DNA from: an uncultured Gammaproteobacteria bacterium
GTDB taxonomy: Bacteria; Patescibacteriota; Microgenomatia; Levybacterales; GWA1-39-11
DNA length: 64,000 nucleotides
Direction: 5' to 3'
Assembly: GCA_964450885.1 (NCBI GenBank)
Contig: CAYVFE010000002.1
Span: 15,192-79,191, forward strand
In this document: in pieces, positions 11,350 to 19,618 of the stretch
Layout of the letters: each line of letters begins with the position of its first letter
How positions within the stretch are numbered: position 1 is the first letter of the stretch
Notes under the pieces: model-generated
Told to the model about the DNA's origin: nothing
What the model saw: only the letters and a program-made list of their open reading frames with translations
The model's database searches: none
Made by a program: the position numbers and the translations under genes

Positions 11350-12228
11350 ATGGTACCCATGCAACCTATACTTGAAGTTAAAGATAGTATTATGAACAAT
11401 TTTGCGCCTTGGATTCTAAATCATGGCATCCAGATCCTCATAGTTATTGTAGCCGCTTTAGTTGTCGGTAAAATATCTAAAATAGTTGTCGAGAGGATCA
11501 TCAAGAAAACGATCCGCACATCAAAATACGAATCGAAAGCTGCCGAAGAGCAGCGAGAAAACACGTTGATTCTTGTATTCAACTATGCCTTCAACATAAT
11601 ACTTATCGTAATAGTTGTACTCACGATTCTTTCAGAAGTGGGTGTAGACATAGGTCCTCTTATCGCAGGCGCTGGGATCGTTGGGGTAGCTGTAGGATTT
11701 GGGGGCCAGTATTTTATACGTGATATTATCGCCGGATTTTTTATAATCCTTGAAAATCAATATAGGGTGGGAGATGTTGTTGAGATTAATAATAAGGGAG
11801 GTCTCGTGGAAGATATTACTCTGAGGCTTACTGTAATTCGTGATCTTGATGGGGTAGTGCACAGCATACCTAATGGCGAAATCACCTACTCGTCTAATAT
11901 GTCGAAGGAATTCTCAAGAATTAACCTTGATATCAGAGTCTCGTACGATAGCGATATCGAAAAAATTATTAAGGTAATTGACGAGACAGGCAAGGCTATG
12001 GCCAAAGATAAAGAATGGAAGAGCCAGATAACTACAGCTCCTCATTTTTTACGGGTTGATGATTTTGCTGACTCTGCAATTATCGTTAAAATACTGGGAG
12101 AGACTCAGCCATTGAAGCAATGGAGCGTTGCCGGCGAATTCAGAAAAAGACTAAAAATTTCCTTTGATAAAAATAGAATAAAGATCCCATATCCTCAAAG
12201 AGTAATCCACCAACAGGATACGGCCTAG
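11350..12228 (+). CDS. Small-conductance mechanosensitive channel (MscS family)
   Basis: N-terminal TM helices then the MscS beta-domain pattern ([43 protein letters not shown]). Confidence 0.75.
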
Positions 12229-12608
12229 TTCTTTTTTTCAGGAATAAAATCGAGTGCCAGCGAGTTTATACAGTATCGCAACCCGGTAGGTTTTGGGCCG
12301 TCATTGAATACGTGCCCCAGATGAGCATCACAATTTTTGCAAACAACCTCAGTCCTGCTCATGCCTTGCGAGTCATCGTCATCAAGTTTTATGTTCTCTT
12401 TTTCTGTATCCCAGAAGCTCGGCCATCCTGTTTGACTATCAAATTTCGTGTCAGAGTCAAATAACTTTTTGCCACAATTTACACAAACATACTCTCCCTC
12501 TTTCTTATTATCAGTATACTTTCCACTAAAAGGCGGCTCTGTTCCTTTTAAGAAGCAAATATTGTATTGTTCCTGAGTCAGTTTGTTTTTCGGGTCTTTG
12601 TTATTCAT
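12225..12608 (-). CDS. msrB: Peptide-methionine (R)-S-oxide reductase MsrB
   Basis: Two CxxC zinc motifs ([20 protein letters not shown]), signature [10 protein letters not shown], and catalytic Cys in RYCINS. Confidence 0.85.
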
Positions 12609-12960
12609 CTTGCTTCACTTTGACATATACGGGCCTGAGTAGTTGTGTTCCGATTGATGAAATCTTTCCTCCTGCAAATATAATAAGTCCTACCAATGCA
12701 GAATTTGCCCCGAGATTTAATACGGTGTTTATAAGGTCTGCCGGAAGTATCTCAACCCTCATGCCCCTGGTTAGACTCTCTGGTAATTGTGGAAATAGAA
12801 TCTTCCCATCTATTGCAAAATCCGAAGATTCAAATGAGAATAGTTGAACAGGTTCGATAACTGCTGTAAACACCAGAACTACCTGAAGAATGCTGCCTAC
12901 AATCATAATGATTCCTGCAACCAAAAGCGCATAACCAGTTTTCTTGATGCTACTATCCAT
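12601..12960 (-). CDS. Hypothetical membrane protein
   Basis: 119 aa with N-terminal TM. Overlaps the msrB start by 8 nt (operon). Confidence 0.35.
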
Positions 12961-12991: not shown

Positions 12992-13132
12992 TTAGAAAAC
13001 CAATCTCCAAATAAGAACCAAAAGAACGATAGCTACGATCGTTCCGAGTATTCCTCTTGGAATCGGTACAAATGAAAAAACTATGTTAACGATAAGCACA
13101 AAGAGTATTATTCCTAGAATTAATTCAAGCAT
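12992..13132 (-). CDS. Small hydrophobic protein (46 aa, two predicted TM helices)
   Basis: Below the ORF-track length cutoff. ATG preceded by a perfect SD (AAAGGAGGTGATATTAAATG). Translation MLELILGIILFVLIVNIVFSFVPIPRGILGTIVAIVLLVLIWRLVF. Confidence 0.4.
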   Translation of the reverse strand: MLELILGIILFVLIVNIVFSFVPIPRGILGTIVAIVLLVLIWRLVF

Positions 13133-13283
13133 TTAATATCACCTCCTTTCGATTTATTACTAATGTTAGCAGTACGCATATAAAATCCTTGTAAGAAAAC
13201 TAACATTAATGTGTAAGTTGAAAGTCTTAGAGAAATTATTGTAATATTAATCTTTGCACAAGGGGAGGTGAGTGGTTGAACTC

Positions 13284-13733
13284 ATGGATAAAAATAAAAA
13301 CCTAACAACAGGAATAGTTATAGTTGCGATAATCGTTGTTGTGACTGTTGCTGCCGCTTTTTATCAGCAGAGTGTAACTACCCAAACATCGGAACTTGTC
13401 GTAAATGAACAAGAATTAAATCATACCAATCCATCAAATTATGAAAGTGGTACATATGAGGCTACTGGAAATTATATTTCCCCGGGGGGAGCTGAAGAAA
13501 TAGATGTAACGCTTACGATCGAAGATGGTGTTGTTGTAGATTCACATGTGGAGCCGAGAGCAACAAGAGACATCTCTGTAGTTATGCAAAATGACTTTGC
13601 AGATAACTACAAAGAATTTGTCATAGGAAAAAGTATTGATGAGGTTAGTCTCACAAAGGTCTCTGGATCATCGCTTACTCCAAATGGATTTAATGACGCA
13701 GTCGAGAAAATCAAAGGACAGGCAAGATCGTAG
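13284..13733 (+). CDS. Membrane-anchored FMN-binding domain protein (candidate ApbE substrate)
   Basis: N-terminal TM anchor. C-terminal KVSGSSLTPNGF resembles the FMN_bind flavinylation motif D-x-x-(S/T)-G-A-(T/S). Encoded immediately upstream of apbE. Start ambiguous: GTG 13272 (ORF track) or ATG 13284. Confidence 0.5.
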   Translation: MDKNKNLTTGIVIVAIIVVVTVAAAFYQQSVTTQTSELVVNEQELNHTNPSNYESGTYEATGNYISPGGAEEIDVTLTIEDGVVVDSHVEPRATRDISVVMQNDFADNYKEFVIGKSIDEVSLTKVSGSSLTPNGFNDAVEKIKGQARS

Positions 13734-13739
13734 TGACCC

Positions 13740-14609
13740 ATGAAGACTTTTTCTTTCGAGTCCATCGGCACGAGATGGCAGATTGATATACTGGAGAATA
13801 TTTCTAGAACAAAACTCGAGGAAATAAGAGTGAACGTACAGTCATTCCTTGAGGAATTTACAGTCACGTACTCTAGATTTAGCGCAGAATCAACTGTCAC
13901 CAGGATTTCTGAAAAAATTGGGAGATATAAATTCCCTGAGAGTGCACGCGAACTCTTTTCTATATACAAAAAGCTATACGATTTGAGTGATGGGAGATTT
14001 ACGCCACTTATTGGAGATACCCTAAGCTTAGCTGGATATGACCGAAAGTACTCGCTAGTTTCCAAAAAAATGACCAGACCGAAAAAGTGGGAAGAGGTTA
14101 TGCAGTTTTCATATCCATATCTTTCAACCCACGAAAAGGTAATACTTGATTTTGGAGCATGCGGAAAGGGATATGCGATAGATAGAATATCGCACCTACT
14201 AAAAGAGGCAAAAATTAAATCATACATAATTGATGCAAGCGGAGACCTATATATAAGTGAGGCTAAGAATACGAGAATCGGGTTGGAAAATCCGCTAGAC
14301 CCCAAGCAAGTCATTGGCGTTGCTACTATAAACAACGTTAGCATCTGTGCTTCGTCTTTAAATAGACGAAAATGGGATAAGTATTCACATATCATCGACC
14401 CTCGCACCCTTGCCAGCCCTGAGGGAATACTGGGGGTCTGGGTAATAAGTAAAAAAGCTGTTCTCGCTGATGCTCTTGCTACAGCATTATTTTTAGACCG
14501 ACCGGACAAGTTTAAAAAAGATTTTAAATTTGAATATTTGATTTTGTACTCAGACTTTTCTATTTCAAAGTCTATGAAATTTCCTGCAGAAATTTACTAT
14601 AATAACTAA
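13740..14609 (+). CDS. apbE: FAD:protein FMN transferase (ApbE family)
   Basis: 289 aa. ApbE motifs DFGACGKGYAIDRI and GDLYISEAK. Confidence 0.8.
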   Translation: MKTFSFESIGTRWQIDILENISRTKLEEIRVNVQSFLEEFTVTYSRFSAESTVTRISEKIGRYKFPESARELFSIYKKLYDLSDGRFTPLIGDTLSLAGYDRKYSLVSKKMTRPKKWEEVMQFSYPYLSTHEKVILDFGACGKGYAIDRISHLLKEAKIKSYIIDASGDLYISEAKNTRIGLENPLDPKQVIGVATINNVSICASSLNRRKWDKYSHIIDPRTLASPEGILGVWVISKKAVLADALATALFLDRPDKFKKDFKFEYLILYSDFSISKSMKFPAEIYYNN

Positions 14610-14610
14610 G

Positions 14611-16128
14611 ATGCAACGAGTAGACGAATTCTTAAACTCCTTGACCATGTACAAAACAGTCCTATATGGGCTTATAACTCTTGTAGCATGCACTCTAATA
14701 GTTTCTATCCTCGGATCTATTTCTTTCACGCCTTTTATGCTTTTGGCATCTCTTGGTCTCCTTGTAGGCATTTGCGGAATAACCAACTTTATTTTCGCAA
14801 AAATATTCAAAGCCCAAACGAATACCGAGTCATATATCATTAGCGCGCTTATTCTATTTTTTATAATGACTCCTGATGTAAGCAGAGCAGAGGATCTAAT
14901 TTCTTTGATTGCCGTAGGGTTTTTTGCAATGGCATCAAAATACATATTTGCGATCAAAAAAAAGCATCTATTCAACCCTGTTGCGATTTCTGCAGTTCTC
15001 ATCGGCCTTACTGGATTGACGGGAGCAAGCTGGTGGATAGCAACTCCCGTCATGTTACCAGCGGTTACCATAGTAGGGCTTCTTATCATCAGAAAGCTTA
15101 GAAAGTTTTCGATGTTTTTTGCCTTTCTGGGAGTAGTAGCTATAGAAATGCTATTTTTTGGTTTGGTCTATAACACCAGTTCCGTGGATGTAATAACCCA
15201 GCTCATTCTCTCCTGGCCTGTGATCTTTTTTGCGACAATCATGTTGACAGAGCCTCTAACTATGCCCCCAACGAGAGTCTTGCAGATGATGTATGGAGGA
15301 CTGGTCGGATTTCTATTCGCATTTCAACTGCCTTTGGGTCCGATCCTGATGTCGCCGGAATTAGCTCTAGTTATAGGCAATATTTTTTCTTACTTTGTGA
15401 GCTCCAGACAAAAAATCATTCTCACCCTGAAAAGCAAAGAAAAACTTTCAAAAACGATCTATAGCTATGTCTTTACCCAAAGCGAAAGACTCAATTTTAC
15501 AGCTGGTCAGTATATTGAATGGACTCTTCCTCATAAAAATCCTGATAGCAGAGGGAACAGGAGATACTTTACGATAGCATCGTCTCCTACAGAAGAGGAC
15601 ATCATGCTGGGGGTTAGAATTTCTGATGACGGAAGCAGCTTTAAAAAGGCATTACTTGAGCTTGAAAAAAACGCCAGACTTTCAGCAGGAAGTTTAAAGG
15701 GAGATTTTACACTTCCAGACAACAAAAATAAAAAGCTTGTATTTCTGGCAGGGGGGATAGGCATCACACCTTTTAGAAGCATGATTAAATATCTACTGGA
15801 TAAAGGAGAAAAACGCGACATAATACTTTTTCACACATGCTCTAATGGAAGTGATTTTGTATATGCGGATCTATTTAAGGAGGCTGAACAGAAAATGAAC
15901 ATGAAAATAAACTACCTACTCAGCGAGAAGGAAAACGTACCTGCTAATTACGAGGGTAAGTTTGGCCACCTAACAAAAGAAATGATCAAAGATGCGGCTT
16001 TAGATTTTAATGAAAGGATATTTTATATTTCAGGATCAAGCGTCATGGTAGATGCTTATAAAAAAGCTCTAAAGGAACTCGGTGTACCAAAGACAAATAT
16101 AGTAACCGACTACTTCTCCGGGTACTAA
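14611..16128 (+). CDS. Polytopic membrane protein fused to a C-terminal ferredoxin-NADP reductase-type FAD/NAD(P)-binding oxidoreductase domain
   Basis: About 10 predicted TM helices (residues 1-270), then the FNR-family FAD-binding motif RRYFTIASSP and NAD-binding motif FLAGGIGITPFRS. Adjacent to apbE and the FMN-binding gene. Confidence 0.6.
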   Translation: MQRVDEFLNSLTMYKTVLYGLITLVACTLIVSILGSISFTPFMLLASLGLLVGICGITNFIFAKIFKAQTNTESYIISALILFFIMTPDVSRAEDLISLIAVGFFAMASKYIFAIKKKHLFNPVAISAVLIGLTGLTGASWWIATPVMLPAVTIVGLLIIRKLRKFSMFFAFLGVVAIEMLFFGLVYNTSSVDVITQLILSWPVIFFATIMLTEPLTMPPTRVLQMMYGGLVGFLFAFQLPLGPILMSPELALVIGNIFSYFVSSRQKIILTLKSKEKLSKTIYSYVFTQSERLNFTAGQYIEWTLPHKNPDSRGNRRYFTIASSPTEEDIMLGVRISDDGSSFKKALLELEKNARLSAGSLKGDFTLPDNKNKKLVFLAGGIGITPFRSMIKYLLDKGEKRDIILFHTCSNGSDFVYADLFKEAEQKMNMKINYLLSEKENVPANYEGKFGHLTKEMIKDAALDFNERIFYISGSSVMVDAYKKALKELGVPKTNIVTDYFSGY

Positions 16129-16135
16129 GCCAACT

Positions 16136-16441
16136 CTATTTCCTTGCTGCCTTTTTGATCATTTCTGCCTTATTGCGTGCTTTGTCAGCAGATTTTTCTA
16201 TACTGCGCTGTGCCTTATCAGCTTTTTTTTCAAGGTCGTCTGCCAACTCCTGCGTGTCCTTTGCAGTTTTGCCAAGAAATTTTTTACTCTCATCTCTAGC
16301 ATCATCGATCATTTTTTTTGCTTTTTCTCTATTTTCTTTTTTGGAGAGCACTACAGCTGCAGCAGCGCCAGCCGCCACTGCCGCTCCTGCAAGACCCGCC
16401 GCGACTGCTTTTTTTGTATTATTATTTTTTTTCCTAACCAT
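16136..16441 (-). CDS. YtxH-like small membrane-anchored Lys/Ala-rich protein
   Basis: Glycine-zipper TM (AVAAGLAGAAVAAGAAAAVVL) followed by a charged coiled coil. Paralog of 19277..19618. Confidence 0.45.
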   Translation of the reverse strand: MVRKKNNNTKKAVAAGLAGAAVAAGAAAAVVLSKKENREKAKKMIDDARDESKKFLGKTAKDTQELADDLEKKADKAQRSIEKSADKARNKAEMIKKAARK

Positions 16442-19276: not shown

Positions 19277-19618
19277 TTATTTTTTGACTACCTTTTTAAC
19301 AGCCTTTGCTTTTGGCTTCGCTTTGACCTTTGTCTTGGTCGCAGCTTTTTTAGCACTTTTTTTAGTACCTCTTTTAACGTCGTTTGATGCTTTTTTCGCC
19401 TGAGCTTTTACTTCTGATAACAACTTTGATCCCTCTCTTTTTGCATCATTAAGGATTTTTTCAGCCTTCTTCCTGTTTTTTTTGTTGGAAAGAGCTGCAG
19501 CGGCCGCTCCAGCTAGAACAGCAGCTCCTGCAACACCCGCAGCTATCGCTGCTTTACCAGCAGTATTGTTTTTCTTTTTTCCTAGTTTCATAATTACACC
19601 TCCTTTCCTTTTATTCAC
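19277..19618 (-). CDS. YtxH-like small membrane-anchored protein with a histone-H1-like Lys-rich C-terminal tail
   Basis: N-terminus KKKNNTAGKAAIAAGVAGAAVLAGAAAAALSNKKNRKKAEK parallels 16136..16441. C-terminal KKSAKKAATKTKVKAKPKAKAVKKVVKK. SD GGAAAGGAGGTG upstream. Confidence 0.45.
   Translation of the reverse strand: MNKRKGGVIMKLGKKKNNTAGKAAIAAGVAGAAVLAGAAAAALSNKKNRKKAEKILNDAKREGSKLLSEVKAQAKKASNDVKRGTKKSAKKAATKTKVKAKPKAKAVKKVVKK

Follow-up and report, generated by a model that had tools for sequence, protein, structure and literature searches.

The systems closest to the one described here were defined from genomes. In 2021, Méheust et al. (eLife) gave the name NQR/RNF-like to flavinylation gene clusters that include a fusion of an NqrB/RnfD domain (PF03116) with an NqrF domain (PF00175), and reported 127 of them, chiefly from Actinobacteria and the candidate phyla radiation (PMC8238504). 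Huang et al. (mSystems, 2024) described the system as a two-subunit complex whose membrane domain lacks the NqrB/RnfD flavinylation site, and in their AlphaFold-multimer model the flavinylation site of the small subunit lies beside the non-covalent flavin pocket of the membrane domain (PMC11334425). The proposed path for the electrons runs one way, from reduced nicotinamide adenine dinucleotide (phosphate), NAD(P)H, to the membrane flavin site and on to covalently bound flavin mononucleotide (FMN) outside the cell (PMC8238504, PMC11334425). A literature search found no experimental characterisation of an NQR/RNF-like system. Here we analyze a three-gene locus of this appearance in a 64,000-nucleotide stretch of contig CAYVFE010000002.1 (assembly GCA_964450885.1), the whole of which is called the window below.

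We consider it likely that the locus belongs to the published NQR/RNF-like kind and forms a self-contained operon of three genes in a Patescibacteria-type genome. A first-pass annotation of the window had read it as an NQR/RNF-like system reduced to a minimal three-gene form. Since the published architecture is reproduced at the locus, that interpretation was sound, and the kind of system it points to was already known (PMC8238504, PMC11334425). Catalogued from genomes in 2021 and again in 2024, the kind gains in this locus one more uncharacterised member, an example from the candidate phyla radiation of a system defined so far by bioinformatics alone.

Architecture of the locus and identity of the system

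The operon comprises three co-directional, near-abutting genes on the + strand, with gaps of 6 nucleotides between gene 1 and the ApbE gene and of 1 nucleotide between the ApbE gene and gene 3. The tight spacing and the motifs KVSGSSLTP, RRYFTIASSP and GGIGITPF had all been noted in the first-pass annotation and were found again. The features of the operon are as follows.

13284..13733, + strand: gene 1, a 149-residue signal-anchored FMN_bind-type protein (NqrC/RnfG-like subunit), from the conserved ATG start, as in public protein P0121
13299-13364, + strand: transmembrane helix, gene 1 residues 6-27
13449-13730, + strand: FMN_bind domain, gene 1 residues 56-149, after a disordered linker
13653..13673, + strand: predicted flavinylation motif T124-K-V-S-G-S-S130, from family invariance and the match to D-x-x-[ST]-G-[AS]-[ST]
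13740..14609, + strand: gene 2, ApbE, FAD:protein FMN transferase (FAD, flavin adenine dinucleotide), 289 residues, from PF02424
14611..16128, + strand: gene 3, the 505-residue membrane/FNR fusion, an open reading frame
14611..15414, + strand: NqrB/RnfD-fold membrane domain, gene 3 residues 1-268, ten transmembrane helices, N-in/C-in, without the flavinylated-Thr loop
15421..16128, + strand: FNR-type FAD/NAD(P) module, gene 3 residues about 271-505, last residue aromatic
15559-15588, + strand: RRYFTIASSP, FAD-binding, gene 3 residues 317-326
15751-15774, + strand: GGIGITPF, NAD(P)-binding, gene 3 residues 381-388

The longest open reading frame of gene 1 opens at a GTG at 13272 (153 residues) and ends at 13733. 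The ATG at 13284 is conserved in relatives, is also used by the identical public protein P0121 and is preceded by GGAGGTGA at 13264-13271; from this start the first protein keeps the membrane anchor ascribed to it, and its length is 149 rather than 150 residues. The protein has the FMN_bind fold, and its extended motif, T-K-V-S-G-S-S-L-T-P (13653-13682), fits the pattern D-x-x-[ST]-G-[AS]-[ST] with a conserved acceptor. Among 38 close homologues G128, S129, S130, L131 and P133 are invariant and the first position of the motif varies (T, D or G); at the corresponding position a sister subtype of the module bears the canonical VD-x-[VI]-SGAT. FMN_bind (PF04205) is matched by 15 of the 38, with a best E-value of 2.3e-7. 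The invariant SGSS site, these Pfam matches and the fold together bear out the FMN_bind-like flavinylation site that had been proposed for the first protein. Ser130 is the residue expected to accept FMN in phosphoester linkage, and serine acceptors have been shown experimentally in other ApbE substrates (PMC11334425). The net charge is +2 before the helix and -1 after it, and the N-terminal flank is the more positive one in 27 of the 38 homologues, a bias that favours an N-in/C-out small subunit with its FMN_bind domain outside, like NqrC and RnfG.

Gene 2 had been assigned to ApbE, and it matches PF02424 with an E-value of 9e-41 (140.6 bits; model positions 2-252, from residue 10). Its motifs GACGKGYAID, YSHIIDPRT and ADALATA align with those of solved ApbE/FmnB structures (7esa and 4xgw) as the FAD-binding, Mg-binding and catalytic elements GxxxKGxxxD, H-x-x-DPxT and D-A-x-x-T. 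Its best sequence match in the PDB is FmnB 7esa (E = 1.6e-14).

In the gene 3 protein, the proposed FNR-type module was recovered by NAD_binding_1 (E = 9.6e-15) and FAD_binding_6 (E = 7.6e-4). The first-pass estimate of about ten transmembrane helices agrees with an AlphaFold2 model, which places ten within residues 13-263. Loops on one side of these helices carry nine lysine and arginine residues and those on the other side one, which under the positive-inside rule indicates that both termini lie inside and that the FNR module is cytoplasmic. Whether the membrane domain is of the NQR2_RnfD_RnfE family (PF03116) or ferric-reductase-like had been raised as a question, which resolves to NqrB/RnfD. 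PF03116 is recorded on many full-length fusion homologues at about 50% identity, some of them named RnfD or NqrB by their sources. Run against the PDB, a profile of the membrane domain built from 22 sequences matches RnfD alone (8ahx_D, E = 0.001), over the MLTEPLTxPP region, equivalent to ATDPVTSP of RnfD. By homology, then, the membrane domain is of the NqrB/RnfD type. With this assignment, and with the FMN_bind domain of the first protein supported, the two findings that could have overturned the first-pass reading, an unsupported FMN_bind domain and a membrane domain from an unrelated transporter family, did not appear.

In a global hhalign alignment of the fusion with RsxD of E. coli, about 85 RsxD residues, among them the DGISQAT flavinylation loop, fall in a gap, and the same gap is seen against RnfD of A. 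vinelandii. The membrane domain has therefore lost its own covalent-FMN site, and the fusion shares the missing NqrB/RnfD flavinylated Thr reported by Huang et al. 2024. A second candidate site, TGLTGAS (residues 134-140, 15010-15030), fits [DT]xx[ST]G[AS][ST] and lies between helices 5 and 6, in a loop predicted to face outward. We rejected it as a retained flavinylation site; it aligns to AGAGWQW of RsxD, past the deleted loop, occurs only in a few close relatives and is probably coincidental.

As Méheust et al. 2021 require in their operational definition, the fusion carries a C-terminal NqrF-like NAD-binding domain (PF00175) in the same protein and is clustered with genes for ApbE and an FMN_bind protein. 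The locus shares with the published systems an NqrC/RnfG-homologous FMN_bind subunit, ApbE, an NqrB/RnfD-NqrF-like fusion, a membrane domain without the flavinylated Thr and the proposed one-way flow from NAD(P)H to the outside (PMC8238504, PMC11334425). It differs in its FMN_bind site, which is SGSS with a Ser acceptor, not SGAT, and in a membrane domain too divergent to match PF03116, so that the published operational definition would probably have missed the window copy.

Several observations weigh against the identification. In the Pfam search the window fusion reaches no PF03116 score at all. The gene 1 protein scores 16.8 bits against PF04205 (E = 0.011) where the gathering score is 22, and its 149-residue form gave no PF04205 match at E <= 0.01. 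The positive-inside signal of the small subunit, at 27 of 38 homologues, is moderate. The signal-less ApbE should act in the cytosol, whereas the domain it would modify is predicted to lie outside. Finally, the cofactors, electron direction, acceptor and ion coupling of NQR/RNF-like systems have all been inferred.

The locus lacks NqrA, NqrD, NqrE and the 2Fe-2S ferredoxin domain of NqrF found in Na+-NQR (NqrA-F). Its membrane domain has a deletion in place of the NqrB-type covalent FMN loop, its reductase and membrane subunit form one protein, and there would be one transmembrane path in place of the out-and-back path to quinone. It also differs from RNF (RnfABCDGE; RsxABCDGE in E. coli) in having no Fe-S subunits or ferredoxin link and in taking electrons from NAD(P)H through an FNR module rather than RnfC. 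A phmmer search of the six-frame translation of the window with E. coli RsxA, B, C, D, G and E gave no match, and RnfA, RnfE, RnfB and RnfC were thus not found nearby; the test is weak, as RsxD misses the fusion too. The Listeria system (Ndh2, EetA/B, DmkA/B, PplA, FmnB) has in common with the locus an ApbE-family transferase, a covalently flavinylated extracytosolic FMN_bind protein and the outward passage of NADH-derived electrons. It employs a type II NADH dehydrogenase together with a dedicated quinone, and its PplA and FmnB are described, in the accessible part of PMC9973259, as secreted lipoproteins that need exported FAD. At our locus a flavin-only membrane protein takes the place of Ndh2 and quinone, and ApbE has no export signal. 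The comparison with Listeria PplA/FmnB/Ndh2 drawn in the first-pass annotation is good only as an analogy, no Ndh2 or quinone step being encoded beside the module. The cytosolic ApbE of Klebsiella pneumoniae resembles that of the window in lacking a signal and acting in the cytoplasm (PMC12052999); its substrate is a soluble cytoplasmic enzyme, whereas that of the locus is signal-anchored and predicted to face outward.

Relatives, gene order and subtypes

A pattern scan, in which each species was represented by one genome, gave at least 447 loci. Eighty of these were retrieved and, with the window, make up the 81 loci in which neighborhoods were counted. The 80 come from many classes of Patescibacteria, from Chloroflexota (Ktedonobacteria, Anaerolineae) and Spirochaetota, and from Actinobacteria (Agreia, Arthrobacter, Cellulomonas) and Alphaproteobacteria (Mesorhizobium, Kaistia). 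A same-strand FMN_bind homologue lies upstream of the fusion in 72 of the 81 loci, ApbE is present in 70, and most show the order FMN_bind-ApbE-fusion. No other real gene family is common to more than 18 loci; the recurrent neighbors encode two-component regulators (14-18 loci) or an ABC-type permease (13 loci). A conserved neighboring terminal reductase was sought in the 81 loci and not found. An exhaustive search with a membrane-domain profile returned 613 clusters at 50% identity with E <= 1e-30, and since most of these are 480-510 residues long, the fusion is the rule. Set against at least 447 species-level genomes and 613 clusters, and with a window copy that misses PF03116, the published definition undercounts the system.

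Across the 81 loci the module occurs in two subtypes that co-evolve in all three components and are cleanly parted by a neighbor-joining tree of the fusion proteins. The subtype of the window, present in Saccharibacteria, Uhrbacteria, WWE3 and Actinobacteria, combines the SGSS site with an ApbE of about 290 residues. The second pairs the canonical VDxxSGAT with an ApbE of about 247 residues, and occurs in many Patescibacteria, Chloroflexota, Alphaproteobacteria and Spirochaetota. We did not see this distinction in the accessible parts of the published accounts of NQR/RNF-like systems. The best named relatives of the window are Levybacteria, Daviesbacteria and 'Patescibacteria group', and the three closest (62-69% identity) keep a wider synteny of CorA, a Mur ligase, MsrB, a 119-residue protein and the operon.

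A histidine kinase and response regulator pair adjoins the module at one locus (L002, 6920-8596) and at about 14-18 others, which hints at regulated expression of the module in those genomes; no such pair lies beside the module in the window.

Proposed electron transfer and the site of flavinylation

From the genes, domains, folds, motifs and gene order of the locus we infer the following mechanism. ApbE would transfer FMN from FAD, through a phosphoester bond, to Ser130 of the 149-residue protein, whose single N-terminal helix would anchor it with the FMN_bind domain on the outer face. The 505-residue protein would accept hydride from NAD(P)H at its cytoplasmic FNR-type FAD domain. Single electrons would then cross by way of a non-covalent flavin site in the NqrB/RnfD-like domain, whose own covalent-FMN loop is lost, and the covalent FMN of the small subunit, docked in the place of NqrB's own FMN, would carry them outside. 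Because no reductase is conserved beside the module, the final acceptor is expected to be a soluble or extracellular oxidant, or a protein encoded elsewhere. The net effect in a quinone-poor fermentative cell would be to regenerate NAD(P)+, or to reduce Fe(III) or another external substrate. The earlier proposal that an extracytoplasmic protein is flavinylated and fed from NAD(P)H is in this form supported by the domains, the predicted folds and the conservation of the module.

One feature that sits uneasily with this mechanism is the location of ApbE. A hydrophobic anchor with an N-in charge bias is present in the gene 1 protein and absent from ApbE, whose most hydrophobic 19-residue window scores 1.4, so that no transmembrane segment is predicted. 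Neither a signal peptide nor a lipobox, as in the typical extracytosolic form, was found in the window ApbE. Those ApbEs known to be secreted are lipoproteins. At 13734, 6 nucleotides upstream of the gene, an in-frame TGA bars an N-terminal extension. We considered whether TGA is recoded (genetic code 25), which would extend ApbE, and rejected it, as code 11 gives full-length, homologue-matching open reading frames for the three genes and their neighbors. ApbE starts were surveyed in the 58 related clusters with an identifiable ApbE, from five phyla. In 55 the reading frame leaves no room for a signal peptide and starts at the conserved FEAIGTxW or MGMPITVE core; the remaining three, called as the longest frame, carry hydrophilic, probably miscalled extensions. 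We found no discussion of this mismatch in the accessible portions of the main texts of PMC8238504 and PMC11334425, the papers that define the system. Only clusters with a predicted signal peptide on a target gene were retained in the first of these (PMC8238504), and the low published count may reflect both the ApbE signal mismatch and weak PF03116 scores. The localization of ApbE and the identity of the acceptor are where the interest of the locus now lies.

The mismatch could be resolved if flavinylation took place in the cytosol ahead of export, if the domain faced inward, or if the genome encoded a second ApbE at another site. As none of the clusters examined, from five phyla, has an ApbE export signal, the covalent FMN would be installed in the cytosol; either the pre-flavinylated, signal-anchored protein is threaded across the membrane, or the FMN_bind domain is cytoplasmic and the published extracytosolic model is wrong. 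We advance cytosolic installation tentatively, as a possibility with the odds somewhat against it. If it were true, threading a pre-flavinylated protein across the membrane would represent a route of biogenesis that has not been described for any ApbE substrate, and flavinylation before export would spare the export of FAD, which would suit minimal genomes.

Were the flavinylated domain to stay and work inside the cell, the module would amount to a membrane-bound NAD(P)H oxidoreductase without electron export, which might, for example, reduce a membrane-soluble acceptor at an NqrB-like quinone/riboflavin site. Patescibacteria generally lack quinones. The charge bias of the anchor, in the window protein as in 27 of the 38 homologues, is the reverse of what an inward-facing domain would lead one to expect, albeit moderate, the variable linker rich in Ser, Thr, Gln and Pro is typical of exported proteins, and the homologous subunits NqrC and RnfG are periplasmic. 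The published multimer model, too, docks the domain at the outer face, by the flavin pocket (PMC11334425). An ApbE without a signal peptide in all 58 clusters, across phyla, does agree with a cytoplasmic domain, and a signal-less ApbE is known to serve a cytosolic FMN_bind domain in Klebsiella fumarate reductase (PMC12052999), yet we judge this arrangement unlikely.

Somewhat less likely still is a module that runs in reverse or is coupled to ions, so that a gradient would drive electrons from an external donor to NAD(P)+, or Na+ or H+ would be pumped during export. NqrB and RnfD, to which the membrane domain is homologous, belong to the core of ion-translocating complexes, and electron flow is reversible in principle according to Méheust et al. 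(PMC8238504). The operon, however, is not a complete NQR or RNF; NqrD/E or RnfA/E, which form the second transmembrane electron path of those complexes, are not adjacent, NqrA or RnfB/C is likewise missing, and the Rsx subunits of E. coli, used in a simple search of the window, gave no match. The single transmembrane path has been read as one-way (PMC8238504, PMC11334425). That the 505-residue protein is instead of the NOX/ferric-reductase type, a heme-binding FRD domain joined to an FNR dehydrogenase domain, is barely credible given a fold other than the six-helix membrane domain with four heme-ligating His and a family with one invariant His, which excludes a bis-heme ferric-reductase domain.

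Outward transfer from NAD(P)H remains the reading we prefer. If it holds, the module would be among the simplest known routes for taking cytosolic NAD(P)H electrons across a membrane, with two proteins and flavins only, without quinone, heme or Fe-S centers, and it may be the main membrane redox device where respiratory chains are missing.

Upstream region and neighboring genes

Two features were recorded in the divergent intergenic region upstream of gene 1.

13161..13208, no strand: 9-bp perfect inverted repeat TAATGTTAG-N30-CTAACATTA, exact, with arms at 13161-13169 and 13200-13208
13218..13247, + strand: promoter-like TTGAAA-18 nt-TAATAT, from a consensus scan and conservation, function inferred

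The inverted repeat exists exactly as the first-pass annotation had reported it; the operator role suggested there did not hold up. A perfect 9-bp repeat between divergent genes would suit an operator for both promoters, and the chance of such a repeat is about 0.04 in random 136-bp regions of the same composition. Across the window, however, such 9-mer pairs number 40 against about 14 expected, and the arm sequence is not enriched (17 matches with at most one mismatch against 20 expected). The three closest syntenic loci (L081, L082 and L084) keep neither arm, whereas in the intergenic alignment with these relatives conservation is highest in the adjacent promoter-like blocks GTAAGTTGAAA and TGTAATATTAAT. 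A spacer of 30 nucleotides is unusual for a dimeric operator, and no regulator gene is adjacent in the window. RNA folding, with z-scores of -1.9 and -1.5, is unremarkable. We regard the repeat as probably fortuitous, with no functional part in the module, and an operator as quite improbable.

The repeat sits just upstream of a small hydrophobic 45-residue open reading frame, MLELILGIILFVLIVNIVFSFVPIPRGILGTIVAIVLLVLIWRLVF (about 12998-13135, - strand), which has a GGAGGTG ribosome-binding site, is conserved in relatives at the DNA level and is called as a 46-residue gene in one of them (L083).

The operon is flanked by MsrB, a 119-residue membrane protein and a HAD phosphatase. The 119-residue protein, which has no Pfam family, overlaps by 8 nucleotides the start of the cytoplasmic MsrB (SelR, E = 2.8e-51). 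This pair (12225-12960, - strand) is transcribed divergently from the operon and is kept in the three closest relatives, and it is not conserved beside the module in distant loci.

About 11 kb from the operon lies a gene for a membrane-anchored cupredoxin of 151 residues (1854-2309, - strand; PF00127, E = 2.4e-13) with a Cys/His/Met copper site, YYCSVGNHREMGM. It adjoins a Fur-family regulator and a ZIP metal transporter (593-1006 and 1003-1830, both + strand). The cupredoxin is a second predicted extracytosolic one-electron carrier, and that it is a partner or acceptor of the module is pure speculation.

In two paralogous small proteins of 101 and 113 residues (16136-16441 and 19277-19618, both - strand) a Lys-rich tail comes after a hydrophobic segment rich in Ala and Gly. 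They belong to no Pfam family, and proteins of 112-115 residues occur at comparable positions in relatives.

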